Shown one piece after another: positions 36,851 to 57,847 of a stretch of DNA of 64,000 bases. The notes under the pieces were generated by a model. The model searched no databases. It was not told the origin of the DNA and saw nothing but the letters and a program-made list of their open reading frames with translations. The stretch covers positions 17,737-81,736 of the forward strand of contig CAWDWD010000018.1 in NCBI GenBank assembly GCA_963805915.1, given 5' to 3'. The DNA comes from an uncultured Alphaproteobacteria bacterium. Its GTDB lineage: Bacteria; Pseudomonadota; Alphaproteobacteria; Rhodospirillales; Defluviicoccaceae. Position numbers and translations under genes: made by a program. Within the stretch, counting starts at the first letter, position 1. Each line of letters starts with the position of its first letter.

Positions 36851-37261
36851 TTAGCCGAGACCTCGGCAATAATTATGATCATAATTGCGTTGACGAGTGT
36901 CGTCCGCCTCGGCGCTCTCGATGTCGCCGTGCTCGTTCTCATGGTTCAATGCCGGGGTTGGATTGCGAGCATGATCGTCATCATGGTGGTCAACACCGAT
37001 CGGATTGACAGCGTTTCGCTCAAGGCCCTCGTCAGCCGGGCCCCCGCACGGGTCCCGGCGCGATCCACCGCTGGTCGAGCCATCGTGTTCTTCCCCAACC
37101 TCTCGCTTCGGCTGTTGGGCTTCCTCCACGGAGAGGTCTGAAGTGGCGACTTCGACCTTTTGAACTTCGGCTGTCGCATCCTCGGGCGCGGGATCGACCG
37201 ATTCTGGTTTCACTTCCAGCTTGATTTTGCTCGGCGAAGGTTTGGTCACGGCGGCGGCCAC
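36851..37261 (-). CDS. acidic low-complexity ORF overlapping the 3' end of the ParA-like ORF (separate gene or displaced ParA C-terminus)
   Basis: 136 aa with a GTG start. By eye its codon usage looks more coding-like than the overlapping Arg-rich tail of ORF 37032..38051. Confidence 0.4.
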   Translation of the reverse strand: MAAAVTKPSPSKIKLEVKPESVDPAPEDATAEVQKVEVATSDLSVEEAQQPKREVGEEHDGSTSGGSRRDPCGGPADEGLERNAVNPIGVDHHDDDHARNPTPALNHENEHGDIESAEADDTRQRNYDHNYCRGLG

Positions 37262-44699: not shown

Positions 44700-44727
44700 A
44701 AAATACTAGCCTCTGATAAAGTAAATA

Positions 44728-44751
44728 TCCGATACGCTGAATCGTATCGGA
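44728..44751 (-). promoter_or_regulatory. perfect 9-bp inverted repeat just upstream of the malectin-cadherin gene
   Basis: TCCGATACG-ctgaat-CGTATCGGA. The loop carries a GANTC (GAATC) site. It lies 29-52 nt upstream of the ATG at 44699. Confidence 0.4.
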
Positions 44752-44969
44752 CGATGTGCAATTTATATTTGACAGGTGATTGCATGAGTAACCCGCGCAT
44801 AGCCGCGGCAGTCTTAAGCTCACTGCTGCGGTTCTGTCGCAGGGCAAGCCCCGATAAAATGGGGTGCCGGATTGTCAGAAATGTTAGTACGGAGACGGAA
44901 GTGCTCTCATCTCCCACCGAATCGATTACATCGGCGTAAGCGCTTATACTTTCTAGCGGACGTATATCA

Positions 44970-45338
44970 TCATTGTAATGCCGCCGATACTTTGCTCCGG
45001 TCCCGCGTCGCCTTCACGTATGCAATTTCACAGTGTTTGCTACAGTATGGCTTGCCTGTTGAAGCCGGATTGCCGCAAAAGTGGAATGTCTCTTCGCCTG
45101 GATCTCCCATTGGCCAGCTACACATTCCCGCCCGCAGGGCGTCGAGGCTGATGATTTCCGACGCTTCGGCCTTTTCGACAGCGACCCGCCGTTTCGCAAG
45201 CCCAAGCCGGTGGACCTTCCCAATCACCGCGTTCTTGGTAATGCCGAGGCGGCGGCCGATTTCACTCGTCGGCAACTCTTGGTTCCACAACGCTATCAGC
45301 GTGGCAATTCGCTCAGGTGTCCAGTCGCCGAGGCTCAT
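44970..45338 (-). CDS. gcrA: GcrA-family cell-cycle-type regulator (short, phage-borne form)
   Basis: WTPERIATLIALWNQELPTSEIGRRLGITKNAVIGKVHRLGL at the N-terminus and CSWPMGDPGEETFHFCGN...KPYCSKHCEIAY at the C-terminus. Confidence 0.85.
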   Translation of the reverse strand: MSLGDWTPERIATLIALWNQELPTSEIGRRLGITKNAVIGKVHRLGLAKRRVAVEKAEASEIISLDALRAGMCSWPMGDPGEETFHFCGNPASTGKPYCSKHCEIAYVKATRDRSKVSAALQ

Positions 45339-45629
45339 CGAAATTTCCTGACCGTTCCGTTACGCAGCGTGTCGACACCAGGGCAGAAAACGTTGCCCTC
45401 GGTTTGGAGCGCGATCGCTTCAATCACCTTCGCCGCTACGTATATCCCAGACTCGGGTCAGTTTCCACTACATATTGATCGTCACCGACATGTGAGGGAT
45501 CACGGCGTTTTATCTGCCACACCGAGTGGCCTTGTCTCGGCGAGAGCGGCCAGTCTGATCAGAATTGCGCCTGCACGAGCGTCAATTCGTTACAAATCGC
45601 CGCCTTGCCGCCGCCGGCCGAGTCGATCG

Positions 45630-47156
45630 CTACAGCGCGAAATCCCGTTCGGCCTCAAAGCAGGAGCCGCCACGCCAAGGCTTGCTTTGCGTGCTGGCTC
45701 GCCCTTGCCAAGTCTGCAATGGCAAGCGAACTGATTCGCTCAGCAGACATCCGGCGACCGCATCCAGCCCGTCGTCTCGACACTTACCTTTTCCAGGTCG
45801 CCATTCGCGCATCTCTTGAACGAATGGGGTATCGAACACGCCCTCATGAACGGCAAGCCGGCCCGCGGCCAGAACAGCGTCAAATGCTTCGAGGATGCGG
45901 ATATCCTTGCTCGTCCTGGAGGTATGTTCCAGAACGGCGCAGTTCAGGCCGCTCCGGCGGAGTTGCTGGCGCAACAAGCCCGTCAAAAAGCGCCCTATTC
46001 CGTTGGTTTCAACGGTCACCGCCGGCAAATGCAATTCACGAACGATCGAAGCAACCTGTCGGCATAGTTGGGTCGCCTCGTCGACGTCATCCGCCAGCAG
46101 TGGATCGTGAGTGATATACTCTATTCGATGCAGCCAGTATGAGCCGGACTCATCCGTGAAAACGGCTGCGACGACGCTCGAGTCGCCCGTATCCGGCGAC
46201 CCGTAGGAGGGGTCCCACCAGCAAGACACAGATACCAGACGGGCGCCGCCAAGTGTCAGTGTCGCCGTTCTGTTGCTCTCACGGTACACAAGGCGATGAC
46301 CGTAGGAGCGAAGCCGCTCGGGATCGAGCCGGCTATCGGTTAGGGGCCTAGCCTTCAGCATCATTTGACTTTGGAACTTCGCCGGACCCGTGGCTTCCAG
46401 CAATTCCTGGATTTTATCTTTGGGAAATCGCTCGGGCCAGGCACTCTCGCCGCGTTCAGTCAATATAGGTAATTCGAGACGACTGTAAGCGCCCAAAAAC
46501 GGAGCCTCTTCTCTCGAACCTATATTATCTTGTCTACGATATATGCTGTGATAACAATGCGGTGTTCCAATATACAGCTTCATCCCATTCGGAGAAAGAA
46601 CGTACGCGGACTCTTGTAGGCGCTCGCGAAGCGCATTTCTTTTTTGCGCCGTATCCGAGTTGTTCGGGACTTCGACATCGTCGCAGATCAAGACGTCGGT
46701 TCGTAAACCGGTAATGTTGGCCGCAATGCCCTTCGCTAGTACCGATGGATCCCTTAGCTCGGCGCGCCGCCTGACGATAAATCGATCGGCGGCCCAAACT
46801 TGATGTCTAGCCGGCCGCAGTGGCGCGGTCAGCGGATGGCACTCGATCAATCTTCGCACGTTTCGAACCATCGTTTTTGCAAGTGAAAAGTCCCCCGCCA
46901 TAACGAGGATTCGCAAGTCCGGGTCCTGGAGCAAGAGCCAGGCGCAAAACAACCCGACCACCGACGACTTACCCGAGTTGCGAAAAGCTAGAAGAACGAG
47001 TTCGCGGTCGCCTGCGATTAAGCGGTCGGACAACCACCGCGCCATCTTCAGGTGGATGTCTGGCGTCGTCTGATCCTGGAAATGATTCCAAATCCATACG
47101 AATTCCGGGAAAGTTACGGTTCTGGCCGTGGTGAGGCCTTGCAGCGGTACCGGCAT
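45630..47156 (-). CDS. terL: terminase large subunit, T7 gp19-like
   Basis: LVLLAFRNSGKSSVVGLFCAWLLLQDPDLRILVMAG and TDVLICDDVEVPNNSDT align with my memory of T7 gp19 ([21 protein letters not shown]...LKILIVSAS; ADIIIADDVEIPSNSAT). Confidence 0.88.
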   Translation of the reverse strand: MPVPLQGLTTARTVTFPEFVWIWNHFQDQTTPDIHLKMARWLSDRLIAGDRELVLLAFRNSGKSSVVGLFCAWLLLQDPDLRILVMAGDFSLAKTMVRNVRRLIECHPLTAPLRPARHQVWAADRFIVRRRAELRDPSVLAKGIAANITGLRTDVLICDDVEVPNNSDTAQKRNALRERLQESAYVLSPNGMKLYIGTPHCYHSIYRRQDNIGSREEAPFLGAYSRLELPILTERGESAWPERFPKDKIQELLEATGPAKFQSQMMLKARPLTDSRLDPERLRSYGHRLVYRESNRTATLTLGGARLVSVSCWWDPSYGSPDTGDSSVVAAVFTDESGSYWLHRIEYITHDPLLADDVDEATQLCRQVASIVRELHLPAVTVETNGIGRFLTGLLRQQLRRSGLNCAVLEHTSRTSKDIRILEAFDAVLAAGRLAVHEGVFDTPFVQEMREWRPGKGKCRDDGLDAVAGCLLSESVRLPLQTWQGRASTQSKPWRGGSCFEAERDFAL

Positions 47157-47161
47157 AAGGA

Positions 47162-47548
47162 TTATTGAAGAGAAAGTCCGGCGTCGCGAGCCCGCAGAAT
47201 GACGAGGTTCGACAAGAATGCCGAGAATGCGGGGCAGTCAACAAGCAGCTCTTCGACCCAGGCTTCACCGAGAAGCGGTTCCTCGGCAGCAGCGCTTAAT
47301 GCGGCTGGCGTCAAAAGCGGGCTATAGCAACGAGCCTTCCTAGCTCTTTGGCGCTCAATCTCCACTTGCTTGAGGGCCTCAAGGTCAACTTTATGCTGTA
47401 TAGCTATCGCAGTATCGCTAATGCTGCGCATTTTCTCGACCTGCGAGCAGCTGGCTAGGAGCACCATAAGCGTCAAGCTAACCGCCGTTGACATGATTCG
47501 TGTCGTTGCATCACCTTCAGTTTTGTTTAAGTAACCGCCCACCTGCAT
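47162..47548 (-). CDS. phage lipoprotein in the T7 gene 18.5/18.7 position (spanin-like candidate)
   Basis: Lipobox LMVLLASC, a charged helical middle and a hydrophobic C-terminal stretch (AFSAFLSNLVIL). AGGAGGTAAATG joins it to the upstream ORF. Confidence 0.5.
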   Translation of the reverse strand: MQVGGYLNKTEGDATTRIMSTAVSLTLMVLLASCSQVEKMRSISDTAIAIQHKVDLEALKQVEIERQRARKARCYSPLLTPAALSAAAEEPLLGEAWVEELLVDCPAFSAFLSNLVILRARDAGLSLQ

Positions 47549-47836
47549 TTACCTCCTACTTAAATCAGCTCTCGCTTCGTCAATAAGGGTCTCAACATCA
47601 ATATCTTGTTGTGTCAAATCTGCGCCAACACCTTGCGGAAAACGTTCGGCAAATCGATGCAATAGGATCATGTGGCTTAGCGCGGCGCGGCAGGCGGATT
47701 GCGCGCCCACGAAACCGTTGCAATCTTCCGGAAAAGCTTGCTCGACGCGCTTCATGTACTCTTTGAAGGCCATAAGCATTAAGAGAGACAAGCGATTTCC
47801 TATATAAACTGCAACCTTCTCATTGTTTTCAGCCAT
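47549..47836 (-). CDS. hypothetical phage protein in the T7 gene 18 position (small terminase candidate by position only)
   Basis: 95-aa ORF immediately upstream of the lipoprotein and TerL. I see no recognisable motif. Confidence 0.45.
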   Translation of the reverse strand: MAENNEKVAVYIGNRLSLLMLMAFKEYMKRVEQAFPEDCNGFVGAQSACRAALSHMILLHRFAERFPQGVGADLTQQDIDVETLIDEARADLSRR

Positions 47837-47877
47837 TTGTGATTATCCCGGAACACCACTTCAGATTAGACTTTCCA

Positions 47878-48405
47878 TCATAAACTGATAACGATGCTGT
47901 CGATAAATTTTATTATAAGTGGCGCCATTATTGCTATGAAGAGCGTGCCGAGTATGATGTATAATTTCCGCTCTGAGGCGAGTCTTGATATTTCTACTTG
48001 GCGTGCTATTTCTATCTTGCTACGGTCAATTTGTTCTTCATCTCTATGCTTGCGGAGGTTGTCAATAAATGTCGCGCCTTCCGCTCGAATTTCCTGCGCG
48101 ATATCCCTTTTTAGCTGACCTATGTCTTTTACAAGGTTGTTTTCCAATAGAGCCAAGTCTGCCGACAAACGAACGTGCCTGACTTCGAAATCTTTGTTCC
48201 GGATTGCAAGCTCGTCGGTTAGTTTCGAGTAATGCAATTTCAGCTGTTCAATTTCTACGGCATGGTGCCTGGTTGAGCTCGTTAGGCCGTTCCCAACTTT
48301 GGAAGATAGTGTCACAAACGCAACATGCAGCTCATCCATCTTGAGGAATACTCGATCCTGTAATTTCTCAAGTCGCTCGGTTCTCTTTTCCAGATCTAAA
48401 GACAT
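47878..48405 (-). CDS. coiled-coil protein with C-terminal TM anchor
   Basis: 175 aa. Heptad-like charged repeats, then YIILGTLFIAIMAPLIIKFIDSIVISL at the extreme C-terminus. It sits in the most AT-rich stretch of the window. Confidence 0.5.
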   Translation of the reverse strand: MSLDLEKRTERLEKLQDRVFLKMDELHVAFVTLSSKVGNGLTSSTRHHAVEIEQLKLHYSKLTDELAIRNKDFEVRHVRLSADLALLENNLVKDIGQLKRDIAQEIRAEGATFIDNLRKHRDEEQIDRSKIEIARQVEISRLASERKLYIILGTLFIAIMAPLIIKFIDSIVISL

Positions 48406-48432
48406 GAAGATATGTTCCGTGGGGAGCTTGCA

Positions 48433-48642
48433 CTAGCGCTTTGCAAGGCGCTTGTCCGCCACCGCGCGACCAAGCATGCCAACCGCAGCGCCAGCAACAG
48501 CCAGGAGCTGGAACACGGCGTCCGTCATGCTGTCCGGCTCGAGGTATAAAACATCAAACTCTCGAAGAGATATAACGATTACAGTGACGAGAGGGCCGAT
48601 GAAACCCTTTGACAGGTACCAAGGTTTAGAGCCATTCATCAT
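48433..48642 (-). CDS. holin-like small membrane protein
   Basis: 69 aa with two hydrophobic segments (GFIGPLVTVIVISL; AVFQLLAVAGAAVGMLG) and a basic C-terminal tail (DKRLAKR). It occupies a position like T7 gene 17.5. Confidence 0.5.
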   Translation of the reverse strand: MMNGSKPWYLSKGFIGPLVTVIVISLREFDVLYLEPDSMTDAVFQLLAVAGAAVGMLGRAVADKRLAKR

Positions 48643-48695
48643 AAAGTTCCTATTTGAGCATATCGCATTCTATATTCAGTACGAACCTCCGCTTA

Positions 48696-49142
48696 TTATT
48701 CTAATATATTGGCTTGGCGACCTGCTTGTTGGCCTATATTAAAGGCTGCCTGAGTACGATAGTCAGAGAGGTCCAGGAGGCTCTTCCGCCGCTGAGCCAC
48801 CAGTTGCTGTTGCACCTGGTCGATGCGGGACGCGTTGAGTTTTTGATTCTCCGCGGCGCCCAAAGTCGCTTCTTTGGCCAGGCCGGCCAGGACGGCTCCC
48901 GCGGAACCACCAGAGCCCAATCCCTGAGCAGCAAAACTCGCCTTCTGAGCGGCTAAGGCCTTGCGCAGTTTCTCACGACGAGATCTATCGTCAGCGGCTT
49001 CAACTAGTCTCATCTGGGCGATTCTTGCCTGCGCATCCGCTTTGGCGGCGTCGTGCGCGGCATCCGCCTGACGCTCTTGCTGCGCCGCGGTCATTCCCAT
49101 CTGAAGGGCGCTCAGCGCCGCGGCCGGGACAAAACCACCCAT
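48696..49142 (-). CDS. Ala/Gln-rich phage protein (internal virion protein candidate)
   Basis: 148-aa low-complexity helical protein directly after tail tubular B, where T7 has genes 13/14. AGGAGA lies 8 nt upstream of the ATG. Confidence 0.5.
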   Translation of the reverse strand: MGGFVPAAALSALQMGMTAAQQERQADAAHDAAKADAQARIAQMRLVEAADDRSRREKLRKALAAQKASFAAQGLGSGGSAGAVLAGLAKEATLGAAENQKLNASRIDQVQQQLVAQRRKSLLDLSDYRTQAAFNIGQQAGRQANILE

Positions 49143-49242
49143 GCGTGGGGTCTCCTATTAATTACTCGAGAATTTAAACGAGCCCTGTGTGCGGCGCACT
49201 GAAAGTAAAAGACGGCGCGCGCAAGGTAAAATGGTTAAGTTG

Positions 49243-51142
49243 TTAGTTGGCGCTGATTTCCGTCGCCACAGACAGGAGTGTAAAGGGCAGAGGCGACGCC
49301 TGAGCAATTCTCCAAAGGCTTTTGCTTGTGTCGCTCCGCCATCCATAACCCCGCACGGTTCGATCACCCGTGAAGAGGTGAGGCCTCTGATCAAGGACAT
49401 CGTCGCCCATTTTTCGGAACGGCACCTCCTTGAATCCGCGCCCCAGGTCCAGATTTAATGCCGCGGTTTCCAGGAAGCGGAAGGTCACCATGACCGGCCG
49501 AACACGGCTGCCTTGGCCTCCTGCCGCGGCGCCTCCGGAGGCTGGCGGTAGAGGCTCTACCACGTGGCTGAATTCAAGGCCGACAAGGACAGTGAACGCC
49601 GGTTCGCCGATTTCGACACTGGCGTATTCAACGACGGCCTTCGGCCGAACAATGCCGTCCGCAACGATAGCCACGACCTGGCCATCCAGGTGTCCAAGAC
49701 CGGCCCACGTCGATTGAGCCGAGGGTGAAGTGCCGATATAACCGCAGTCGACACCCAGTCGGCGGTCAAAGGCCTCGACAAGAAGTCCACCTATTCGCTC
49801 TACCATGACGAAAGTTTCGTCGCCGACCGTAGCGACGGAGCGGAAGGCACCGTTCGTGTCCTGAACCGTCCACGCACTGACCTGTTCATCACGATAAATC
49901 GTCAGGGTCGCCAAGGTCCCATTTGCCATCACGGCATGCAGGAGGCGCGAAGACTTGTCGATGTCCATATCAATCGGTTGATCTATAAGATGATCGGAAA
50001 GTAGAGCCAAGTCGGCCGCTTGGTAGGCAGCCTCGGTATCAGTAAACAGAAACTCTCGGATCTGGTTACCAGCTCTCGCCACAAACACGGTCGCGCCATC
50101 GACGTCCTTTGGCGGCACTGTCCGCGACACCGCCGAGCCCACGCGCGTCTGGCGGTGTAGCTGAATATTGACCGGAGTTCAGGGGCTCGCCGCTGACCAT
50201 CCACTCCGCGCCCGAGGTGAAGACCTGCAGGTGTCGTCCGGAAAAAACCGCTCGTATGGCGTTGACTTGATCGGACAATATGGCGAATTCGATGGACTCG
50301 TCGTTCAGTCCGTCGCCAAGATCGAAGTTGAATAACTTGGCGGTTTTTGATAGCCAAAGCCGATTGGGCAGATCCCGGGAACCGCCGACGACCAACCGGT
50401 CTTGGTGAAAACATACCGCTGTCGGCCAACCCCTCGCTGCCGAAAAGGCCGCCTCGGTCCAGTCCTTAGTCGCCTGAGTGGAGACAAGGGTTTCCTTGAC
50501 ATCAACGCGGGCCTGCGTCGGTGAAACAACCGCGGCGACCGCAACCTCTCGACCGGCGATGCGGAACCGCACTCCGATATGGTCCGGCAGGAACACGGGT
50601 TCAGTGGCCGTAACGATGATGCTGCCGCTGGTGCCGCTGGCCTGTAGCGTCGTTTGTTCGCCGGCAAACTTGTAGTGCGGTACGAGAAGCCGTCCGTCTC
50701 TATCCGAGAAAGTCCACTCGGAGACGAACCATTCAGCGTCAGTTTGGCGGGTTATAATCCGGGGAGGCACTTCCGGATGTACGACAAGGAGGGTGTCGGG
50801 GCTTTGCGTCCAATTGATCTGGTCCAACTGAGCGACCGACCATGGTGCTGCAAAATCGGCGACTCTGATCCCGTTGCGATACACATCAACGGCATGATCC
50901 GAGAACAGCAGAAGGTAGGCCTTTTCAGTGCTAAATTCGAACGCGACAAGCCGACCTGGTCCCCGCGCCGTATCGACAAAGCGCAGGCCAGGCCGGCGGG
51001 AAAGGCCTCCAGTCGGATGAATGAAGACGTTGCGTAACTTTGCCGCGCCGTTCTCGAAGGCCCGCAGGTCAGAGCGGCCGAGTAGCCGTGGCGAGAGCTC
51101 GCCCGCGGAAAAGTTCGTTTTCGCGGTTCTGATTCTCGCCAT
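49243..51142 (-). pseudogene. tail tubular protein B (T7 gp12-like), reading frame broken once near 50178
   Basis: ORF 50066..51142 carries RLWLSKTAKLFNF (T7: ILSRTAKYFNF). ORF 49243..50142 continues the protein. Deleting one A gives ...WMVSGEPLTPVNIQL... (T7: ...LTASGTLTSKSVEL...). Confidence 0.8.
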
Positions 51143-51744
51143 CAGTAACGACTTTCCACCAGACAGTAGTCCTGTATGCTTTGCGGCGTATCTTCCTGCG
51201 CGTCGATGAGTTTAGCGCCGCGTAGCTCGGCATCCGCGAGCTTATGCAAGCTCTCCCATCGAGACGTGCTGTCGGTTAACGGGATGCAAAACTCGGCCGC
51301 GAGATGCGTGATCAGCACTTTGCTGAAGAAAGGCGGGTCGTCGGCTTCGTTGGCCCGAAACACATAAGTCAGCACCACTTCGCCGGCGTTCGTATGTAAC
51401 CGTCCGTCGTACAGACGGTAGATCAGGCCAGCACCGCTCCCGCCAGCTCCCGCCGACAGAACCCGCAGGCAATCCGCTGGGAGCGCGAATGTGTTGACAA
51501 GGTCACTGTCGTCATTGACCGAAAGAGCAGCCAGCTTCTTCCGCGTCGTTGCGAAATTCCACGGATGTGCAGACAGCAGGCCGTCACGAACATAATCATA
51601 GAGATTTGCCGCGACGTCGGCTTCGGCCGTGCCGTCGTCAAGCGAACTGATGGTGCCTGCCCCAATTTTGAGAAGTGCCCTGGAGCATAGATCAATGCGG
51701 CTTAACGACACGAGGTCATCTCCCTTGTAATGATTCAAATGCAC
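51142..51744 (-). CDS. tail tubular protein A (T7 gp11-like)
   Basis: 200 aa. IDLCSRALLKIGAGTISSLDDGTAEADVAANLYDYVRDGLLSAHPWNFA parallels T7 gp11 [46 protein letters not shown]. Confidence 0.8.
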   Translation of the reverse strand: MHLNHYKGDDLVSLSRIDLCSRALLKIGAGTISSLDDGTAEADVAANLYDYVRDGLLSAHPWNFATTRKKLAALSVNDDSDLVNTFALPADCLRVLSAGAGGSGAGLIYRLYDGRLHTNAGEVVLTYVFRANEADDPPFFSKVLITHLAAEFCIPLTDSTSRWESLHKLADAELRGAKLIDAQEDTPQSIQDYCLVESRY

Positions 51745-51794
51745 GGGCGTGGGTACAACCGACTCTGCAGGCGAAGAAGTAGGTGCGCTCTACG

Positions 51795-52064
51795 TCAGTC
51801 CGAATTACTGGCGCCGACCGCGACCAAATCGGCCACGTCCACGCTGCCCGCGCCGGCGTTGCTGACCAGGAAAATTCCCGCCTGTGCGGAACCCGCGGTA
51901 TCAGTATTCGCCAGGATCATGTCGCCGGCGCGCACCACGTCGCTCGCGTCATTAAAATACCCTTGAGTATCGACCTCGATAGCGACGTCATTTGTTTTAT
52001 AGTGCCAAAGGGTGAAGCCATTGGCGTAAGCAAGAACACTAAGATCTTTTGAAGAATAGGACAT
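51795..52064 (-). CDS. small phage structural-region protein (possible capsid decoration protein)
   Basis: 89-aa ORF between the capsid and tail tubular A genes. No motif is recognised. Confidence 0.5.
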   Translation of the reverse strand: MSYSSKDLSVLAYANGFTLWHYKTNDVAIEVDTQGYFNDASDVVRAGDMILANTDTAGSAQAGIFLVSNAGAGSVDVADLVAVGASNSD

Positions 52065-52079
52065 TCTGTACGCTCCGGA

Positions 52080-52898
52080 TCAAGCTTCGCGGCAGGGCAT
52101 TGTCACGACGCCGGAGGCGTCGATCAGGCAGGCGCCCTGACTCATCATGTTGTTGACGAAGTGAGCGGCGCGATCGCCATGCCAGGTGATATCAGTGCTG
52201 ACGTCGGAGCCGACGGCGTGGGCAAGAGCGGTCTTGTGATACCAGAAGCAGGATCGGACGTCGGCAGCGATTGGGAGCGCCGAATGGGGAAGCCAGAGGG
52301 TTCCGAGCCATCGTTTGGCCTGGGTTCCCTTCCATGGGAGTTCGTCGTCACCAATGTAGTCGGCATTGCCGAACTCAGGGAGATTGAGAAGATCGCTCCA
52401 CTGCTTCCAACCAACGACGGCGTAGCGCTGGCCATCGTCCGGTACGTCGACCGCGCCAAGCGTCTCGAAAGCCGCTAGGACCTTCTCCTTGGTCAAACCG
52501 TCGGTATCGGCGCCGACGGTGACGCTGGCTTTCGCGAGCTGCTCGATGATCAGTTCGTCTGTCTTGCGGCCGAGTGCATAGGCACCGGCCTTGGCGACAA
52601 CCTGCTGCTCATTGATATTCGTCTTGAGCTCATCGAGCTTGTCGACCCAGTCGCCAGCGTAGAAGTCGTACAGCATGCACTCGATCGGTGTGTGGTCGAC
52701 GTTCATGACCGGAACCTTGCCGTGCCGCGCCTTGGTGCTGGCCGTCCCCTTGCCGATCCTCTGGAACGTCGTCGATGCCCCGGTTACGTTCTCCTTGGTA
52801 CGAACGGTCGGGCGAAGCTTAGATCCCATCTGCTGGTAATTGATGTGTACCAGTGCTTCAAAGTTTTTGATGAATGATTGCGGGACCGTAACAGACAA
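52080..52898 (-). CDS. major capsid protein (T7 gene 10 position)
   Basis: 272 aa. TTG start with AGGAGA 7 nt upstream. It follows the scaffold gene. The overall pattern is reminiscent of small HK97-fold capsid proteins. Confidence 0.7.
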   Translation of the reverse strand: MSVTVPQSFIKNFEALVHINYQQMGSKLRPTVRTKENVTGASTTFQRIGKGTASTKARHGKVPVMNVDHTPIECMLYDFYAGDWVDKLDELKTNINEQQVVAKAGAYALGRKTDELIIEQLAKASVTVGADTDGLTKEKVLAAFETLGAVDVPDDGQRYAVVGWKQWSDLLNLPEFGNADYIGDDELPWKGTQAKRWLGTLWLPHSALPIAADVRSCFWYHKTALAHAVGSDVSTDITWHGDRAAHFVNNMMSQGACLIDASGVVTMPCREA

Positions 52899-52952
52899 TA
52901 TCGTGTCTCCTAAATTGCACTCATTTGTGAATCACGATCGGCTTAAATAAAC

Positions 52953-52982
52953 GGGGCGTCGGCTACCGGTAGCCGACGCCCC
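52953..52982 (-). terminator. perfect 14-bp-stem hairpin between scaffold and capsid genes
   Basis: GGGGCGTCGGCTAC-cg-GTAGCCGACGCCCC. On the minus strand it is followed by GTTTATTTAA. Confidence 0.55.
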
Positions 52983-53031
52983 GAGGAGGAGCGGCGACCG
53001 ACGCGCTCACTCCTTGTCTCAATAAGGCGTT

Positions 53032-53766
53032 CTATTCGTCATAAATGCGCCGGAAACCTTCGCTGACTCGTCCAATGAAAGCTGCGTCCTGCTCACGCCA
53101 ATACTTTGGATCGCGCATCATCTGCTTCAGGTTAGCCTCGCTCAAAGGCTCATGAGCGGCTGAGCCGCCTCCCATCAACCTCGGTTCCTCGGCCGCCATC
53201 ATCTTGCGCATCGCCAGGACGCCCTCGCGCGAAGTCGCGAGTGCATCGAACACCGAAGCGGGAAGGTTGCCTCGGCCCCAAACGGCGATCTGGCGCGCGG
53301 CTTCCCGCCACTGATCCTCTCCGCCGAACTCCTGCCGGAGCTGGGCGATCTCCTTTTCGGCCTCGAACTCCGAAGCCACTTCGGCGACCATCGGCATCAA
53401 CTGCTTGGCGGCCAAGGTGTAGACCAGTTGAACCTGATCGCGGGTGAAGCCAGCCGCATGAAGCTGTTTGTTGATCTCGGGGTCGCTCTCGAAGAGCTCG
53501 TGTTCGACACTGATGTCGTAGTCGTCCGGGCCCGCGGGCACGCCCGAGCGCATTTCCCCCGCCGCACGCTGCAGTTCGAGGTAGGACGCGATCAGATCGT
53601 CGGTTCGGACGCATCCAGCGCTCTCGTCCCAGAATTGCTCCGGAACAGACTCCGGCCGCGACGCCGGATCAGCGTCGCCGGGAATGGTCCCTGCGAGGAC
53701 CAGTGGTTCGGAATCTGCTTCCGCCGAGACGCTCTCGTTATAGTCTCGCGGTGTGTTCTCGCTCAT
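53032..53766 (-). CDS. capsid scaffolding/assembly protein (T7 gene 9 position)
   Basis: 244 aa from the ATG at 53766 (GGAGAT 5 nt upstream). It is acidic and helical (MSENTPRDYNESVSAEADSEP...), between the portal and capsid genes. Confidence 0.65.
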   Translation of the reverse strand: MSENTPRDYNESVSAEADSEPLVLAGTIPGDADPASRPESVPEQFWDESAGCVRTDDLIASYLELQRAAGEMRSGVPAGPDDYDISVEHELFESDPEINKQLHAAGFTRDQVQLVYTLAAKQLMPMVAEVASEFEAEKEIAQLRQEFGGEDQWREAARQIAVWGRGNLPASVFDALATSREGVLAMRKMMAAEEPRLMGGGSAAHEPLSEANLKQMMRDPKYWREQDAAFIGRVSEGFRRIYDE

Positions 53767-53782
53767 GTGGATCTCCGGCGCG

Positions 53783-54076
53783 CTATTGGGACTGACTTGT
53801 TGCGTCGTTGCCGCGTCTGACCAAGCTTGCGATCCGGGCGAGAAGCTGTCTCTGGCCCTCGACATGACGCAACATCGCTTCCGATACCTCTGGCCCGAAT
53901 GTGCGTCCAAAGGCGATCGCTCGCAGATGTGCGAAGACCCGCCGACCGTCGGGGGTCGAGAAGCATCGAGCAAAGCTCGCCGCCACCTCGGTCCGCTCCA
54001 CGCGACCAATATCCTGGTCTATTGGGCCCCCAAGATCCGGACCAAATCCGGGCCATTCTTCATCCGTCGACGGCAT
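53783..54076 (-). CDS. small phage protein overlapping the portal stop
   Basis: About 97 aa (MPSTDEEWPGFGPDLGG...RRVFAHLRAIAFGRTFGPEVS...). GGAG lies 6 nt upstream of this ATG. Confidence 0.5.
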   Translation of the reverse strand: MPSTDEEWPGFGPDLGGPIDQDIGRVERTEVAASFARCFSTPDGRRVFAHLRAIAFGRTFGPEVSEAMLRHVEGQRQLLARIASLVRRGNDATSQSQ

Positions 54077-55619
54077 TGTCATCTCCGAGCTGCCTGTCAA
54101 TCTCCATAAGTCCGCCTAATCCGTTTAAAGCAGGGAGCCCGACGCCGAGCGGCATTGCCGGGGCGTCGCGGACAAGCTCGCCCGGCACGCCCAGCGCTTG
54201 CGCCAGCCAGCGCGTCGCGGCGCTCTGGTCTACCGCCGCCATGGCTTCCGCGCCGAGCGAGCGCACGGCATCGAGCCACAGCAAAGTGTTCTGAACACCT
54301 TGTTGCGCCTGGTAGCGGGCCTGCGGTGATCGGTACTCGATCGTGATCGTTCGGTTATCAAGCGGCAGATCGGGTATTTCGCCGCGGCGCGCGAGAATTG
54401 TCCGCGCGCGAACAATCAGCGGCGTCAACAACTCCGATTGGAGGCGGCCGTACGTCGCGCCTAAGAGGCGCGCCATTTCCGCCGCTCGCTCAAGAACTTC
54501 CGTTGCGGTCATACGCGGGCCGCTGACTTGGCCGAGCTGATCGACGAGCAAGGCCCTGCGGATGCGCGCGCGAACCTGATCGAGAACCAGTTCCGAAACA
54601 TCAAAGCGGCCAGGCGCTTCGAGGGGCGTCAGGCCGGCCGAACCGACCGCCTTCGGTATGATGGTTCCTGGAACCAGCTTGATGTTGGCCGGATTGATCA
54701 CGCCGTCGTCGTCGACCTGCCAGATGCCCGTCACGGCGATCGATGCGTTCTTCAGGACAAGCTCGACAACCTTATTCGCCGTCTTGATGTCCGGCAGCGC
54801 CTTCATGATCGGCGATCGGCCATAGCTTTCCCCAGGCGCCTTTGACCAACGAAAATTGATGAAAGGCGACGTCGAGAAGCGTCCTTCGCCAAGAACGAGC
54901 GGCTCTCGCGCACTGTTCGCATCGCTTTCGGCGACGGCAAGGTATGCGTACCCTTGGCCGTCTGGAACAACCGCTTCGATGACCGCTATGCTTGCCTCGT
55001 CATTATTTGGCGAGCCGACGAACCGTCCCAGGCCGTCGCCTCGCGGAAATCGCGCCACGACTTGGGCCGGCGTCAGGCGAGCGCGCCGGAACGTGGTGTC
55101 GAGGCGACCGGATGGCCCCTCCTCCAGCACGACCTGGGACATCGGCACGGCAGTAAAACGAAAGGCCGAGGCTTCCCACGTCCCCGCCTCCTCGAACATC
55201 AAGCAAGCGGTGCCAGCCGTGACCAGATCGAGGTAGCATTGGTGCGTCTCGACAACAAAGTTGGAACGATCGAAGTTCGACTGGACGACACGTGTCATGC
55301 GCTCTAGATCCGGCGCCAGCAATTGGCGCGTGGCGTCGTCCGCGTCCGGACCGACGCAGAAGCCGAACCAGGATGACCACGGCGGATTGAGCTGCGCCAT
55401 CAAGCTGGCCGCCAACTGATCGACAGCGTCCTGGGCCGTCGCATCAAACAACTTTTCGGTCTTTTTCTCCCCCGGCTGGGCTGATCGGATCACGCCGCCT
55501 CGCTGGGGAAGGGCATAGTCGTAACACTCCTGCCAGTGTGCCTCCCACGTTGTCCTGCGTTCGCGGGCCCGCGCGTAGCGCTGGACGACGTCGTTCGGGT
55601 TAAGCCGAGTCATGATCAT
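54060..55619 (-). CDS. portal / head-to-tail connector protein (T7 gp8-like)
   Basis: KAPGESYGRSPIMKALPDIKTANKV and MTATEVLERAAE...LQSELLTPLIVRA parallel T7 gp8 LDGESYGRSYIEEYLGDLRSLENLQ and VTAEEIRYVASE...LSQELQLPLVRVL. Confidence 0.88.
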   Translation of the reverse strand: MIMTRLNPNDVVQRYARARERRTTWEAHWQECYDYALPQRGGVIRSAQPGEKKTEKLFDATAQDAVDQLAASLMAQLNPPWSSWFGFCVGPDADDATRQLLAPDLERMTRVVQSNFDRSNFVVETHQCYLDLVTAGTACLMFEEAGTWEASAFRFTAVPMSQVVLEEGPSGRLDTTFRRARLTPAQVVARFPRGDGLGRFVGSPNNDEASIAVIEAVVPDGQGYAYLAVAESDANSAREPLVLGEGRFSTSPFINFRWSKAPGESYGRSPIMKALPDIKTANKVVELVLKNASIAVTGIWQVDDDGVINPANIKLVPGTIIPKAVGSAGLTPLEAPGRFDVSELVLDQVRARIRRALLVDQLGQVSGPRMTATEVLERAAEMARLLGATYGRLQSELLTPLIVRARTILARRGEIPDLPLDNRTITIEYRSPQARYQAQQGVQNTLLWLDAVRSLGAEAMAAVDQSAATRWLAQALGVPGELVRDAPAMPLGVGLPALNGLGGLMEIDRQLGDDNAVDG

Positions 55620-55800
55620 CCTTCGATTAGCGATTTCCGCCGAGGCGCCTCATAGGCGCGCAAAAAGCAGCGATCCACCGCATGGGTGCGTCACATCCGA
55701 TCGGAGCGGCTATTGTTCAGAAGTCGACGCAATGGCAGGATTTTAAGCCACATTGGGGTAGTGCTGGATACACGAACCCTGGTCGACGAGGAGAACTATA

Positions 55801-56256
55801 CTAGGTCATCAGACCTATGTCAAGGTTTTTAGTCTTATCCCTAAGCAGGTAGCTGTAGAGCTGCCATGGCGTCCGGATGCGTCTAGCGTGAATGCCAAGC
55901 ACGCGCTTTACGGCTTCGACACATGTAACCGGAGCCAGTGGTGCTATCTTTTCCGGCGCTGCTTGGACGATTGTTGCCACCGCCCTCACCCCCTGGCTCT
56001 CGTACCATTCGGAAAGCTGGACCGCGGTCACTCCGCAAACGAGGTTTATAGTCGTGCGATGCGAGAGCGGGTCGAGAATGACCCAACCGCCTGCCAAGCC
56101 GACCGCGACGAAACAATGGCGGAAGCCCGCTCGCAGGAACCGCAAGCATTTCAACTGAGTCGATCCGGCGAAGAGCACCAGCGCCGGCAGATCCTGCGGA
56201 GGTTGATGCGGCGCCGGCTGCCGCCCGCGCGGTCCGGCGGAGGCGCCGCCGTTCAT
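55801..56256 (-). CDS. hypothetical protein, second gene of the module (possible permuted papain-like hydrolase)
   Basis: 151 aa. A His-then-Cys arrangement (FRHCFVAVG...GWVILDP ... PVTCVEAVKRVLG) is suggestive only. It is ATGA-coupled to the upstream ORF. Confidence 0.5.
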   Translation of the reverse strand: MNGGASAGPRGRQPAPHQPPQDLPALVLFAGSTQLKCLRFLRAGFRHCFVAVGLAGGWVILDPLSHRTTINLVCGVTAVQLSEWYESQGVRAVATIVQAAPEKIAPLAPVTCVEAVKRVLGIHARRIRTPWQLYSYLLRDKTKNLDIGLMT

Positions 56257-56618
56257 TCAACAATGCCCTTCTCGCGAAGCGGGGTGGATAGCCGGTCGAT
56301 CGCTTCCTCCCAGAATTTGGCCGCGCGAGCCTGTTCGTCGCAGCGCGGGTCGGGCGTCTTCTGCAACAGCCCGTATTGGCCCAAGATACGGACGTGCGCC
56401 GGTCCGATCGTGCCGCTGCGCAGGAGCCTGTCGGCGGCGCGATAAACATCATCGGGGTCGCAAGGCCGCCCCGTTGAACCGGCGCAGGCCTCGATCCTGG
56501 CGCCTTCCCTGCGCACTTGCTGACAGCGGACAAACCAGAACCACGCAGCCTCGGCGCTTTCGAAAGCGGTTACGGGCTGGTCGGACATCGTTTTCGGGAT
56601 ATAGCGTTGACGAAGCAT
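56253..56618 (-). CDS. hypothetical protein, first gene of the module
   Basis: 121 aa. GGGGGAG lies 7 nt upstream of the ATG. It contains an AAWFWFVRCQ motif and I recognise no family. Confidence 0.55.
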   Translation of the reverse strand: MLRQRYIPKTMSDQPVTAFESAEAAWFWFVRCQQVRREGARIEACAGSTGRPCDPDDVYRAADRLLRSGTIGPAHVRILGQYGLLQKTPDPRCDEQARAAKFWEEAIDRLSTPLREKGIVE

Positions 56619-56636
56619 GGCGACGTTCTCCCCCTA

Positions 56637-56651
56637 GAACGTTAACAGAAC
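56637..56651 (-). promoter_or_regulatory. alphaproteobacterial-type SOS (LexA) box GAAC-N7-GAAC
   Basis: GAACgttaacaGAAC (GTTC-N7-GTTC on the coding strand). It lies between the predicted -10 element and the RBS of the first module gene. Confidence 0.55.
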
Positions 56652-56659
56652 ATTCGCCC

Positions 56660-56687
56660 ATCATATAGGATTTTTGCCCTTCGTCAA
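56660..56687 (-). promoter_or_regulatory. sigma70-like promoter of the phage-like operon
   Basis: The minus strand reads TTGACG (56687-56682), a 16-nt spacer, then TATGAT (56665-56660). Confidence 0.5.
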
Positions 56688-56747
56688 AGGGTCATATAGA
56701 AATATGTTCCTAGTGCAAGCCGTGCTTGCTTGTAAGACGATGTTCCC

Positions 56748-57380
56748 ATGCTGCAGCACGCGGAAATTTGGCGGGCTATTGATCTTCTCGCCAACCGGCG
56801 AGGTATGTCCCCTTCGGGGCTTGCGAAGCGCGCCGGCCTTGATCCAACCACCTTCAACAAAAGCAAAAGAATAACCAAGGATGGAAAGTTTCGCTGGCCG
56901 AGCACCGAGAGCATTTCGAAGATCTTGCACGCAAGCGGCGCGACGCTTGGCGAGTTCATGTCACTCGTGGATGAAGGCATAAGTTCGACCGTTTACCAGA
57001 AACTGCCGTTAATCGGTTTTGCTCAGGCTGGTAACGAGGGATACTTTGATGATGCCGGCTATCCGGCCGGGTCGGGGTGGGACGAAATCCTTTTTCCGGA
57101 TTCCAACGATCCGCATGCCTACGCCATTGAAATCAGCGGCGACAGCATGGAGCCGCTCTATCGTGACGGTGACGTCGTTATCGTTTCGCCGCAAGCCAAC
57201 CTCCGGCGTGGCGATCGGGTGATCCTTAAGACCCGCGACGGCGAGGTCCTGGCAAAGCTCCTGCGTCGGCGCACGGCTCATAAAATTGAGCTCCACTCAC
57301 TCAATCCGGCGCACGAGGATCGCTCCATCTCGGTGGAGAACGTCGAGTGGATTGCCCGCATCACCTGGGCCAGCCAGTGA
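56748..57380 (+). CDS. HTH (XRE/CI-type) + S24 peptidase autocleavable repressor
   Basis: N-terminal HTH (MSPSGLAKRAGLDPTTFNKSK). C-terminal S24 domain with catalytic-type Ser (EISGDSMEP) and Lys (RDGEVLAKLL). Confidence 0.85.
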   Translation: MLQHAEIWRAIDLLANRRGMSPSGLAKRAGLDPTTFNKSKRITKDGKFRWPSTESISKILHASGATLGEFMSLVDEGISSTVYQKLPLIGFAQAGNEGYFDDAGYPAGSGWDEILFPDSNDPHAYAIEISGDSMEPLYRDGDVVIVSPQANLRRGDRVILKTRDGEVLAKLLRRRTAHKIELHSLNPAHEDRSISVENVEWIARITWASQ

Positions 57381-57457: not shown

Positions 57458-57847
57458 ATGCCTGTCGCGCGTCATCCCCTTTTTCCGCCCGTCATCGCGC
57501 GCGTAGACTTCTTGTTCGCCCGCTTCGACGGCCCCGTACCATCGCGCGTCTTGGCCGCGGCCGTCATCGGCGAGTCGCTCGCTATTTCACAGCGACATGC
57601 ATATAGCGGCGAGATCGATCGTTCGGCGTGCGATCTTGTAAAATCCATTTCGGCTGTACGCGGCCGCATGTCGAGGGCCGCGCGAAATACCTGCGTCAAG
57701 CTACCGCAACTTGATGAGCTTGTGCGCTGCCTTAGTTACTATCGTGATCTTGGGGTGAGCTTGACGGCATGTAGCCAAGCGGTGCCGGCTTTTAAAGCAA
57801 ACGGCCCTGGTCGCCGCGCGGCGCCGGCGCCGCCCGCGTTTTCGTAG
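57458..57847 (+). CDS. hypothetical ORF (doubtful)
   Basis: 129-aa ORF with no convincing RBS. Its 3' end overlaps the convergent xseA 3' end. Confidence 0.3.
   Translation: MPVARHPLFPPVIARVDFLFARFDGPVPSRVLAAAVIGESLAISQRHAYSGEIDRSACDLVKSISAVRGRMSRAARNTCVKLPQLDELVRCLSYYRDLGVSLTACSQAVPAFKANGPGRRAAPAPPAFS

Follow-up and report, generated by a model that had tools for sequence, protein, structure and literature searches.

Gene content of the locus

The locus lies within a 64-kb stretch of DNA, here called the window, and occupies window positions 44,727–57,380, a unit of 12.7 kb in which 16 minus-strand genes follow the order of the T7 late region and are accompanied by a divergent S24 repressor gene (Table 1). 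The genes belong to the phage head, short-tail, DNA-packaging and lysis classes. This gene order was recognized in the first-pass annotation, the genes that it named have strong profile support at their positions, and the peptide motifs that it quoted are present in the translations. It also described replication, integration, gp15/gp16 core, tail-fibre and recognisable endolysin genes as missing, and none was found within the 64-kb window; a tRNA, att-like direct repeats, an integrase, a primase/replicase and an excisionase were likewise not found there. The low-GC island around the locus starts at ~40.8 kb, not at 44.97 kb, and also includes two secreted malectin/cadherin/GH71 proteins. In the window's clade, the GC content of the element is 4–9 points under that of its flanks.

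Table 1. Genes and regulatory features of the locus, in window coordinates.
Feature	Positions	Strand	Evidence
CI/LexA-like repressor, S24 autopeptidase domain, 210 aa	56748..57380	+	PF00717 E = 9e-25; HTH_26; phrog_4
Divergent regulatory region	56619..56747	-	promoter scan and SOS-box search
p121, first gene of operon	56253..56618	-	intact in 48 loci
p151, conserved, phage origin	55801..56256	-	intact in 52 loci
Portal (T7 gp8-type head-to-tail connector)	54060..55619	-	PF12236 E = 3e-136; phrog_332
Bbp19-like small protein	53783..54100	-	orthologues carry PF25181
Scaffold (T7 capsid assembly protein)	53032..53766	-	PF05396 E = 9e-18
Strong GC-rich hairpin, 14-bp stem, between scaffold and capsid genes	52952..52983	-	terminator-like scan
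Major capsid protein, 272 aa	52080..52898	-	PF19821 E = 1e-79; phrog_3437
p89, small conserved protein 3' of capsid gene	51795..52064	-	phrog_18004 E = 3e-22
Tail tubular protein A (gp11-like)	51142..51744	-	phrog_394 E = 3e-45; PF17212 weak
Tail tubular protein B (gp12-like), frameshifted	49243..51142	-	phrog_376, both halves, E = 2e-77 and 2e-51
p148, Ala/Gln-rich, 148 aa	48696..49142	-	phrog_418 E = 0.003
p69, putative holin-like protein	48433..48642	-	translation: two hydrophobic segments, basic C-terminus
p175, coiled-coil, C-terminal membrane segment	47878..48405	-	translation
p95	47549..47836	-	phrog_31793 (unknown function)
p128, lipoprotein, lipobox LLASC	47162..47548	-	translation; conserved in 15 loci
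Large terminase (T7 gp19-type)	45630..47156	-	phrog_38 E = 1e-75; PF22530 weak
GcrA-like protein, 122 aa	44970..45338	-	PF07750 E = 2e-31
Terminator-like hairpin, end of unit	44727..44752	-	terminator-like scan

The portal protein is 65–85% identical to many Rhodospirillales proteins and 35% identical to its counterpart in Pelagibacter phage Hodr. Between the portal and scaffold genes sits the gene for the Bbp19-like protein, of which a 96-aa Hodr protein is a homologue. The real scaffold gene is the one listed in Table 1, and its relatives are 239–257 aa long. Capsid identity across genera is 70–85%, and p89 is present in 78 loci and has a homologue directly after the capsid gene of Hodr. Because it fills the same slot after tail tubular B as in T7 and Hodr and has weak profile matches, including one of its Shumkonia orthologue to PF24072, p148 is probably a gp14-like internal virion protein. 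The large terminase shares no more than 30% identity with its counterpart in any GenBank phage, and p95, which is conserved immediately upstream of it across lineages, is a candidate small terminase by its position in the T7 gp18 slot.

Tail tubular B is split in the window into ORFs at 49243–50142 and 50066–51142 by one extra A at 50178–50179 (+1 frameshift), and deletion of this A in silico gives a 632-aa ORF resembling those of relatives. The lesion is either very recent or a sequencing error, since both halves are otherwise undamaged. With tail tubular B frameshifted and no fibre or recognisable endolysin gene, the window copy may not work by itself; its clade may have fibre and endolysin genes elsewhere in the genome.

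The remaining small genes are less easily assigned. The membrane segments and position of p69 suggest a holin-like protein, and the position of p128 suggests a spanin-like one; neither has a match in profile searches. The p175 gene occurs only in the window's clade and has no family match. The p121 family, with 112 matches that are all unnamed, seems to be restricted to the element. The AlphaFold2 model of p121 has a four-helix fold (pLDDT 83) with no significant match in the PDB and only a weak likeness to the Q21 antiterminator (TM 0.43–0.48, E > 2), and p121 is possibly a regulator. The p151 model (AlphaFold2 pLDDT 84) matches uncharacterised phage proteins in BFVD (E = 5e-8) and has no match in the PDB.

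Regulatory features

The repressor gene adjoins the structural operon in 51 loci. In 52 orthologues of its product, the residues for autocleavage do not vary: these are the Ala-Gly cleavage site, Lys170 and the GDSMEP serine. The protein scores under the LexA equivalog cut-off. In the divergent regulatory region, the promoter scan identifies a sigma70-like promoter composed of TTGACG (56687–56682) and TATGAT (56665–56660) separated by 16 nt. Downstream of this promoter is an exact SOS box, GTTCTGTTAACGTTC (56651–56637), with the pattern GTTC-N7-GTTC, matched against the alphaproteobacterial LexA (SOS) box consensus (PMC9578287). The region further contains the conserved motifs GGGAACAT and CTAGGAACAT. 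Only three exact SOS boxes are present in the 64-kb window, the operon box among them, and a second is positioned at the 5' end of an MmcB-like gene; in Caulobacter, mmcB is SOS-regulated. Across relatives, an SOS box at the same offset is found in 22 of 49 related intergenic regions, compared to 0.15 expected, and the exact box is absent from the other 27 loci.

The first-pass annotation proposed host-type stress control and named a divergent S24 repressor and a GcrA-like protein as the only regulators. Both proteins are confirmed by domain matches, and the conserved LexA box at the operon promoter directly supports the proposal. The operon looks to be controlled by SOS/LexA together with the CI-like repressor. 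A GcrA gene is found at the same position in 18 of 84 mapped loci, and many loci end before that position.

Distribution, chromosomal position and selection

Species-representative genomes contain the module at 506 loci or more. Among the best 80 of these, with capsid identity of 70–85%, nearly all are labelled as Rhodospirillales or unclassified Alphaproteobacteria, representing at least 10 genera that include Azospirillum, Defluviicoccus, Terasakiella and Caenispirillum. A few metagenome bins with the module carry other taxonomic labels. Gene order is constant among the mapped relatives, and the core genes are intact with few exceptions: capsid in 83/83 complete loci, tail tubular B in 70/73 other loci, terminase in 56/62 and portal in 52/59. 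The late-gene-only layout, with no integrase or replicase, is also found in relatives with long contigs, and no integrase or replication genes were seen in relatives, either in three precomputed Pfam tables or by homology to two phages. Other lineages add T7-type tail fibres, with enzymatic domains, and an endolysin, and the absence of fibre and endolysin is a trait of the window's clade only; gp15/gp16 are absent from all lineages compared. Some relatives have lost, split or interrupted genes (L012 and L015 are without tail tubular B, genes are split in the A. lipoferum group, and L010 contains an IS), and decay is therefore ongoing in places.

The chromosomal position is conserved as well. 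The xseA/purD flank is common to the window and five related loci (six records), four of the five also having the downstream malectin genes. In 26 of 48 loci from several genera, the left flank contains lysS, a class IV aminotransferase gene or both, in some cases together with ubiD, and housekeeping genes directly flank the locus in more than 40 genomes. Every element gene has an omega (dN/dS) of about 0.05–0.25, values that are rough because dS is saturated. The dN values of capsid (0.09), portal (0.15) and repressor (0.13) put the element level with the flanking purD (0.14) and xseA (0.19). Pairwise identities of element proteins and of adjacent host genes are correlated (Pearson 0.65–0.98) with equal mean divergence, and the GC content of the element follows that of the host over a range of 0.47 to 0.71 (r = 0.91). 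The test set beforehand asked for intact, syntenic orthologues that share the chromosomal position and evolve under purifying selection. Such orthologues are found, five of them with the xseA/purD flank, and hundreds more loci across Rhodospirillales have the late-gene-only layout. The element is ancient, chromosomally fixed in Rhodospirillales and vertically inherited, and has been domesticated.

Relation to free phages and mobile elements

All 185 viral-database matches are contigs of 25 kb or less, none of phage-genome size, and IMG/VR lists many copies as proviral regions of 12–25 kb. No copy was found on 72,556 plasmids. The closest phages (~34–35 kb) share virion genes only, and their gp15/gp16-like and early genes have 0 matches in ~165 related loci. 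In the Pelagibacter podophages Hodr (OQ414635) and HTVC024P (MW273920), at 31–45% identity to the element, and in the T7 late region, the same order is observed: portal, small protein, scaffold, capsid, small protein, tubular A, tubular B, gp14-like protein and, where present, fibre. As in T7, the terminase ends the module. Hodr and HTVC024P differ in size (34–35 kb) and in carrying early, replication and recombination genes and large internal virion proteins, for which neither the window nor ~165 related loci have homologues. The capsid resembles that of phages packing ~34 kb, and the whole 12.7-kb locus may therefore fit into the head, unlike in classical GTAs (gene transfer agents), which speaks against a GTA.

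A proposed gene transfer agent and alternative explanations

We propose, with a probability of roughly 0.55, that the locus encodes a particle of podovirus descent, domesticated and induced by the SOS response, that functions in the manner of a gene transfer agent (GTA). We found no publication describing the element. As it is ancient, fixed, kept intact and wired to the DNA-damage response, it is a strong candidate for a new, independently evolved GTA. The first-pass annotation had suggested a GTA-like, domesticated locus; the domestication is shown, and the packaging and transfer of host DNA are inferred. The ancestor would be a podovirus with structural genes of the T7 type, of which the host retained the half for virion formation, packaging and lysis after the replication and integration genes and the large ejection proteins gp15/gp16 were lost. 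Without damage, host LexA would occupy the GTTC-N7-GTTC box immediately 3' of the -10 element in the operon's one promoter, and the CI-like repressor of the element would act as a second lock. Upon DNA damage, active RecA would trigger self-cleavage of LexA and the S24 repressor, and the ~11-kb operon would be transcribed by host RNA polymerase. Proheads would be assembled from the scaffold, portal and capsid proteins, and the T7-type terminase would fill them with whatever DNA is available, presumably host DNA because the element is unable to excise or replicate. Tubular proteins A and B and the gp14-like protein would close the short tail, the holin- and spanin-like proteins would aid release, and the particles would then act as a GTA. 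With gp15/gp16 lacking, DNA delivery would probably reach the periplasm only, as with the GTA of Rhodobacter capsulatus (RcGTA).

The evidence from conservation, selection and SOS control applies equally to an SOS-induced defective-prophage particle kept for a use other than transfer, either as a PBSX-like killer or for altruistic lysis that releases DNA or public goods, where capsids would fill with host DNA without productive delivery. The lack of gp15/gp16 in all lineages, and of the fibre in the window's clade, fits poor adsorption or no injection. Nevertheless, the portal, the terminase and both tubular proteins (A and B) are under purifying selection, as are the enzymatic-domain tail fibres of other lineages, which argues for a complete DNA-carrying, cell-binding particle, and RcGTA transfers DNA although it has no trans-envelope channel. 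We consider a non-transfer use unlikely.

It is doubtful that the locus is a functionless prophage remnant, in this genome or generally, that is slow to decay. The tail tubular B frameshift, the missing fibre, endolysin and core genes, the lower GC relative to the flanks, and the frameshifts, deletions or IS insertions in some relatives would all be accounted for. However, at least 10 genes are intact at 60–85% identity across genera with omega near 0.1, which is beyond neutral decay; the two halves of tail tubular B show no other damage, and many split genes come from metagenome-assembled genomes, where indel errors are plausible. For the family as a whole, the omega values and the intactness of core genes contradict this explanation, and the strain-specific decaying prophage that served as the initial null is refuted at that level.

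A helper-dependent, capsid-forming (PICI-like) satellite that borrows replication, fibres or lysis from a helper phage was also raised initially. A late-gene-only module with its own repressor, the lack of fibre and endolysin in the window's clade and the many proviral copies in IMG/VR are consistent with such an element. This alternative is unsupported and quite improbable because an integrase, replicase and att site are lacking and the position is fixed; primase and excisionase genes are also missing from the window and from among those observed in relatives, the element has diverged in step with its neighbouring genes and adapted its GC to each host, it has its own tail-tube genes, which capsid-forming satellites are not known to have, and it was never found on plasmids. 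Finally, a complete but unconventional small temperate podovirus, with early genes elsewhere in the genome or supplied by the host, is very improbable: temperate phages typically have a CI-like repressor and divergent promoters, and the conserved p121 and p151 could hide novel functions, but at 121 and 151 aa these two proteins fall short of the size of a replicase or integrase, housekeeping genes lie directly at both sides in the more than 40 genomes, no viral-database contig is of phage-genome size, and inheritance is vertical.

Comparison with known systems

The proposed GTA has a close parallel in the RcGTA type of R. capsulatus and Caulobacter (Rhodogtaviriformidae). Each consists of head, tail and packaging genes clustered on the chromosome, has no replication or integration genes, is inherited vertically in an alphaproteobacterial clade under purifying selection, and is controlled by host regulators. 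In both, accessory genes such as fibres and lysis genes may be located outside the main cluster, and neither has a trans-envelope DNA ejection channel. Their ancestors are unrelated: RcGTA descends from an HK97-like siphovirus whose prohead protease and tape measure are both absent from the element, which instead has T7-type portal, scaffold, capsid and tubular proteins A and B. RcGTA is controlled by CtrA, GafA and quorum sensing, whereas the element looks to be under SOS/LexA and a CI-like repressor. The head of the element is probably larger, and its GTA activity is predicted.

PBSX of Bacillus is similarly a chromosomally fixed, DNA-damage-inducible and non-self-propagating particle set that packs host DNA, but it is a myovirus-like killer particle of unrelated sequence from another phylum. 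Capsid-forming PICIs (cf-PICIs) share small loci with capsid, portal and terminase genes under a repressor, but are mobile, with an integrase, att sites and a replication module that the element lacks, and use helper tails, while the element has its own tail tube and a conserved position. The Dd1 particles of Desulfovibrio desulfuricans are short-tailed and podovirus-shaped, and the Dd1 genes are poorly defined. To our knowledge, T7-type tubular proteins are found in neither Dd1 nor BaGTA of Bartonella. Both differ from the element in hosts and gene sets, and BaGTA is coupled to run-off replication. Dd1 and BaGTA are themselves independently evolved GTAs, and domestication has occurred several times (PMC11841831).

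Gene content and surroundings of the element

The element comprises 16 co-directional minus-strand genes (44,970-56,618) and one divergent plus-strand gene that encodes the repressor. Profile searches agree with the first-pass annotation on the portal, scaffold, capsid, tail tubular A and B, terminase, GcrA-like protein and S24 repressor; to that list a Bbp19-like gene has to be added, and the scaffold gene proper is delimited as shown in the table. The gp8-type portal, gp9-type scaffold and HK97-fold capsid follow one another in the order of a T7-type virion, and both T7-type tail tubular proteins (gp11 and gp12) are present in the window.

Features of the element and its surroundings, in window coordinates
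Feature	Position	Strand	Basis or remark
Repressor	56,748-57,380	+	HTH + S24 peptidase, PF00717
Sigma70-like promoter, TTGACG-16-TATGAT	56687-56660	-	Promoter scan, repressor-p121 intergenic region
Putative SOS box, GTTCTGTTAACGTTC	56651-56637	-	Nine bases downstream of the sigma70-like promoter
Portal (gp8-type)		-	PF12236, E = 3e-136, above cut-off
Bbp19-like gene	53783-54100	-	Between portal and scaffold
Scaffold (gp9-type)	53032-53766 (gene proper)	-	PF05396, above cut-off
Major capsid, 272 aa, HK97-fold		-	PF19821, E = 1e-79, above cut-off
Tail tubular A (gp11)		-	phrog_394
Tail tubular B (gp12), frameshifted in the window		-	phrog_376
Large terminase		-	phrog_38, E = 1e-75
GcrA-like protein		-	PF07750
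Two secreted proteins	40822-42909, 43035-44699	-	Sec signal peptides; malectin, cadherin-like and GH71-like domains; inside the low-GC island
Second exact SOS box	32176-32190		At the 5' end of an MmcB-like gene (31720-32196, -; PF06319, DNA repair)

Several small proteins, named here by their length in amino acids, complete the set. An Ala/Gln-rich protein of 148 aa is weakly gp14-like in profile searches. Translation of p69 gives two hydrophobic segments and a basic tail, which makes it holin-like, and p128 carries a lipobox (LLASC). In the T7 map, gp18 (small terminase) and gp18.5/18.7 (spanins) directly precede gp19, and by position p95 and p128 would fill these slots. The first two genes of the operon, p121 and p151, give confident AlphaFold2 models. 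Neither model has a significant match in the PDB (Foldseek), and sequence searches of NCBIfam, PADLOC and the PDB were empty for both, while the p151 model matches only uncharacterised phage proteins in BFVD. On the other strand, a 129-aa ORF lies 3' of the repressor (57458-57847, +) and may be co-transcribed with it; it is kept only in the window's clade, at 36-41% identity, and has no family match.

The element sits among ordinary host genes, with gntP, a MOFRL-family gene and a ParA-like gene on one side and xseA, purD, a deaminase gene and a hemerythrin-domain gene on the other. The ParA/MipZ-type ATPase gene (37032-38051, -) stands alone between the MOFRL-family gene and a PAS/HWE histidine kinase gene, and no partner parB was seen near it. 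GC reaches 0.70-0.735 at 17000-23000, unusually high relative to the rest of the window, and a low-GC island (0.50-0.60 against 0.62-0.70 outside) begins at about 40.8 kb. Within this island, the two malectin proteins have a 143-nt internal repeat in common. Malectin genes also lie 3' of GcrA in the four closest relatives that reach far enough (L003, L006-L008). These proteins were considered as replacement receptor-binding proteins and rejected, since both have a Sec signal peptide and neither has a phage profile match.

Distribution and conserved layout of the family

Rhodospirillales genomes and metagenomes are rich in portal homologues of 65-85% identity, and a capsid alignment scan over one genome per species recovered 506 related loci. 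Among the best 80 of these 506, which were the loci inspected, capsid identity is 70-85% and the labels are nearly all Rhodospirillales or unclassified Alphaproteobacteria, with a few metagenome bins otherwise; genera include Defluviicoccus, Azospirillum (many species), Terasakiella, Magnetovibrio, Caenispirillum, Rhodovibrio, Telmatospirillum and Roseomonas. The viral-contig database gave 185 matches, every one on a contig of 25 kb or less, and no record in the plasmid collection carries the element.

When the window's proteins are mapped on all loci, gene order is constant. Three long-contig contexts have the same layout as the window, with host genes on both sides: a divergent repressor, two small genes, portal, Bbp19, scaffold, capsid, an 89-aa gene and tubular A, followed by tubular B (intact, 631-635 aa), the gp14-like gene, small genes, terminase, sometimes Hydrolase_2, and then GcrA. 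Mapping detected the terminal GcrA in 18 of 84 loci; many of the 84 stop short of that position. ORFs in these loci were chosen by conservation, because a GC3-based gene caller missed low-GC genes, and this choice let in some antisense ORFs in high-GC loci. The capsid is intact in 83/83 loci scored, tail tubular B in 70/73, the terminase in 56/62 and the portal in 52/59. Intact, syntenic copies in other genomes, on which the first-pass annotation had made its candidate GTA-like locus depend, thus exist, with the core genes whole in almost all related loci.

The variable parts lie at defined places. The interval separating tubular B from the terminase encodes T7-type tail fibres or tailspikes in Azospirillum, Terasakiella, Magnetovibrio and other lineages; these show a PF03906 N-terminal domain, a pectate-lyase fold or a Peptidase_G2 chaperone domain. 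On the 3' side of the terminase many lineages have a Hydrolase_2-like gene and small membrane proteins. The fibre is missing from both the window's clade and the Defluviicoccus clade, and the hydrolase from the window's clade; the first-pass annotation had likewise noted that there is no tail fibre, and profile searches detect no gp17-type fibre in the window. In Azospirillum (L037, L053, L060, L082 and others), a host-type GGDEF-EAL signalling gene of ~780 aa interrupts the structural operon between scaffold and capsid; Terasakiella loci have Sel1-repeat and peptidoglycan-binding genes in similar positions.

Vertical inheritance and selection

The nearest relatives, L003-L008, are six records representing five distinct loci (L004 duplicates L003), and all six have the window's xseA/purD flank. 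Farther afield, the repressor is bordered by lysS and/or a class IV aminotransferase gene, with or without ubiD. This arrangement is found in 26 of 48 loci, which range from Defluviicoccus through Azospirillum to Terasakiella and Telmatospirillum, and points to one old insertion site. Between the window and L003-L008, dN is 0.09 for the capsid, 0.15 for the portal and 0.13 for the repressor, compared with 0.14 for the flanking purD and 0.19 for xseA; omega is 0.05-0.25 for every element gene, values that are rough because dS is saturated. Purifying selection at a shared chromosomal position, the other point raised at first pass, is therefore also found.

Across loci, pairwise identity of element proteins tracks that of the neighbouring host gene (Pearson 0.65-0.98), and mean divergence is equal for the two (for example, 67% for portal and 67% for lysS). 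The GC of the element follows that of its flank from 0.47 to 0.71 (r = 0.91). Pairwise identity, GC, dN/dS and flanks thus agree on long-term vertical inheritance under purifying selection within the host clade, as expected of a GTA. A neutral, decaying prophage cannot produce this selection, co-divergence and GC pattern, and we regard the element as very probably domesticated.

Promoter, SOS box and repressor

The 129-bp intergenic region between the repressor and p121 is conserved across genera and, in the window, contains a sigma70-like promoter with an SOS box just downstream. The Caulobacter SOS box is GTTC-N7-GTTC (PMC9578287, Table 1). Three exact boxes of this form occur in the 64-kb window, where about two are expected by chance; the promoter box, however, recurs at the same offset in 22/49 related loci, against 0.15 expected from shuffles. 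A second exact box lies at the MmcB-like gene, and mmcB is SOS-regulated in Caulobacter, so that this box serves as a probable internal positive control for the LexA motif in the window's organism. The shared offset and the box at the MmcB-like gene together make the promoter box meaningful, and the host-type stress control suggested at first pass gains a likely basis in a conserved LexA box at the operon promoter. Control by a host regulator, a further GTA feature, would be exerted through this box.

The repressor itself has the features of the CI/LexA-type autocleaving family, namely an HTH domain, an S24 domain, an Ala-Gly site and a Ser-Lys dyad. The Ala-Gly site, catalytic Ser and Lys are kept in 52/52 orthologues, and the HTH region is highly conserved. 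Its identity as the host LexA was rejected, with a TIGR00498 score of 30.6 against an equivalog cut-off of 111. Two conserved motifs, GGGAACAT and CTAGGAACAT, may be repressor operators.

The operon shows further signals. A second promoter-like site is found 5' of the portal gene, and the scan placed a terminator-like hairpin 3' of GcrA. A very strong hairpin between scaffold and capsid (52952-52983; 14-bp stem, 11 G-C pairs) could attenuate transcription or stabilise the mRNA and thereby set the ratio of capsid to scaffold.

Proposed mechanism and alternatives

Taken together, the comparisons show a late-gene-only podovirus module that is fixed in the chromosome and under selection, with a putative LexA box and a predicted autocleavable repressor. 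DNA damage would de-repress the operon and lead to its transcription by host RNA polymerase. The T7-type terminase would then fill proheads with host DNA, because the locus is unable to excise or amplify, and a short tail of tubular A, tubular B and the gp14-like protein would be added. Release would follow through the holin- and spanin-like proteins, with lysis functions that are presumably located elsewhere in this clade. More speculatively, since gp15/gp16 have been lost in every lineage, DNA may be delivered to the recipient periplasm only. RcGTA also delivers its DNA to the recipient periplasm only.

That the element makes DNA-carrying particles acting as a GTA has, judged from genomic data, close to even odds. 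Our fuller reading, at a probability of roughly 0.4, is that the Rhodospirillales have a GTA of their own, derived from a podovirus with a T7-type virion and domesticated independently before the order diversified; it would be SOS-induced via LexA and a captive CI-like repressor, would package host DNA and would hand it over in the periplasm for competence-type uptake. To our knowledge, the Rhodospirillales lie outside the clade known for RcGTA-like clusters. One GTA criterion, that the DNA pieces are too small to encode the agent, may fail here, as is hinted by the resemblance of the capsid to those of phages packing 34 kb.

A PBSX-like killer particle or an altruistic-lysis particle fits the same data as transfer of host DNA does. 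For the family, the data contradict a functionless remnant. The window copy could be one, since it has no fibre or endolysin and its tail tubular B is cut by a single extra A (50178-50179); removal of this A in silico recovers an ORF of 632 aa whose full length aligns with relatives. Local decay inside the family also appears to have occurred elsewhere, with tail tubular B cleanly lost in two related genomes (L012, L015) and an IS transposase after tail tubular B in another locus (L010, 4634-5605). In the A. lipoferum group (L048, L063-L066, L071, L077, L080, L083), the genes from capsid to terminase are intact, and the 10 kb upstream contain no repressor, portal or scaffold, as if the element had been split or half lost.

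A phage satellite, which would borrow functions of a helper, is unlikely. PICIs and cf-PICIs carry an integrase with att sites and a primase or replicase, whereas profile searches found no integrase or replication genes in the window, and its only direct repeats are those of the malectin domains, with none att-like. The window also has no tRNA genes and no Rfam match. Among the genes of relatives examined, through precomputed Pfam tables of three contexts and homology to two phages, no integrase or primase/replicase was seen. The element, moreover, has a fixed position, vertical inheritance and its own tail tube. It holds phage-derived structural and packaging genes in the chromosome that are unable to replicate or excise alone, which is again a feature of GTAs.

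An unconventional complete phage is very unlikely. As the first-pass annotation had noted, the ORFs of 44.9-57.4 kb, between housekeeping flanks, include no integration gene and none of the single-subunit RNA polymerase, DNA polymerase and primase-helicase by which Autographiviridae are recognised, and the weak gp14-like protein is all of the gp14/gp15/gp16 core found in the window.

Comparison with known systems

The nearest cultured phages are the Pelagibacter podophages Hodr (OQ414635) and HTVC024P (MW273920), of 34-35 kb. They have in common with the loci only the portal, Bbp19-like protein, scaffold, capsid, p89-like protein, tubular A and B, fibre and one small protein. The window and ~165 loci gave no homologue of the phages' large internal virion proteins (783-1247 aa), in keeping with the early remark that gp15/gp16 equivalents are lacking, and the same holds for their early, recombination and replication genes. 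Against GenBank phage terminases, that of the element reaches 30% identity at most.

The element is a possible source of the particles of Azospirillum sp. B510 and A. lipoferum; in the original study these particles were reportedly long-tailed, which counts against it. Mitomycin C particles with ~10 kb of DNA in both organisms were interpreted as GTA (PMC2818188, PMC3899980). The genome paper on B510 reports that no prophage-like region of ~10 kb was found (PMC2818188); RcGTA-like genes in prophage B510PP01 were put forward in a later comparative study (PMC3899980).

Only a handful of GTA lineages are known, and new ones are hard to recognise because detection rests on similarity to RcGTA (PMC11841831). 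In our literature searches, no paper described a T7-type GTA or reported this element from Rhodospirillales, and neither Rhodospirillales nor podovirus-type GTAs come up in the paper on viriform classification. If the proposed reading is correct, Alphaproteobacteria would have two large families of particle loci inherited vertically, the second with another viral ancestor and a DNA-damage trigger, and the domestication of phages into DNA-carrying particles would be recurrent. The two families would then offer a natural comparison for essential features, such as loss of replication or of the ejection channel. Carriers are cultivable and genetically tractable, including Terasakiella, Caenispirillum, the plant-growth promoters in Azospirillum and the wastewater bacterium Defluviicoccus vanus. 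Intact loci are present in Terasakiella pusilla DSM 6293 (L068), Caenispirillum salinarum AK4 (L076), Azospirillum soli and A. brasilense (L037, L082) and D. vanus Ben 114 (L018). The element also marks hundreds of entries listed as 'proviruses' in viral databases as probably non-viral.

The head-tail genes of RcGTA specify an HK97-type capsid with a prohead protease and a tape measure. Neither of the latter is found in the window, where every profile match is T7-type, and by its proteins the element is unrelated to RcGTA in ancestry; by function, it would group with GTAs and viriforms.
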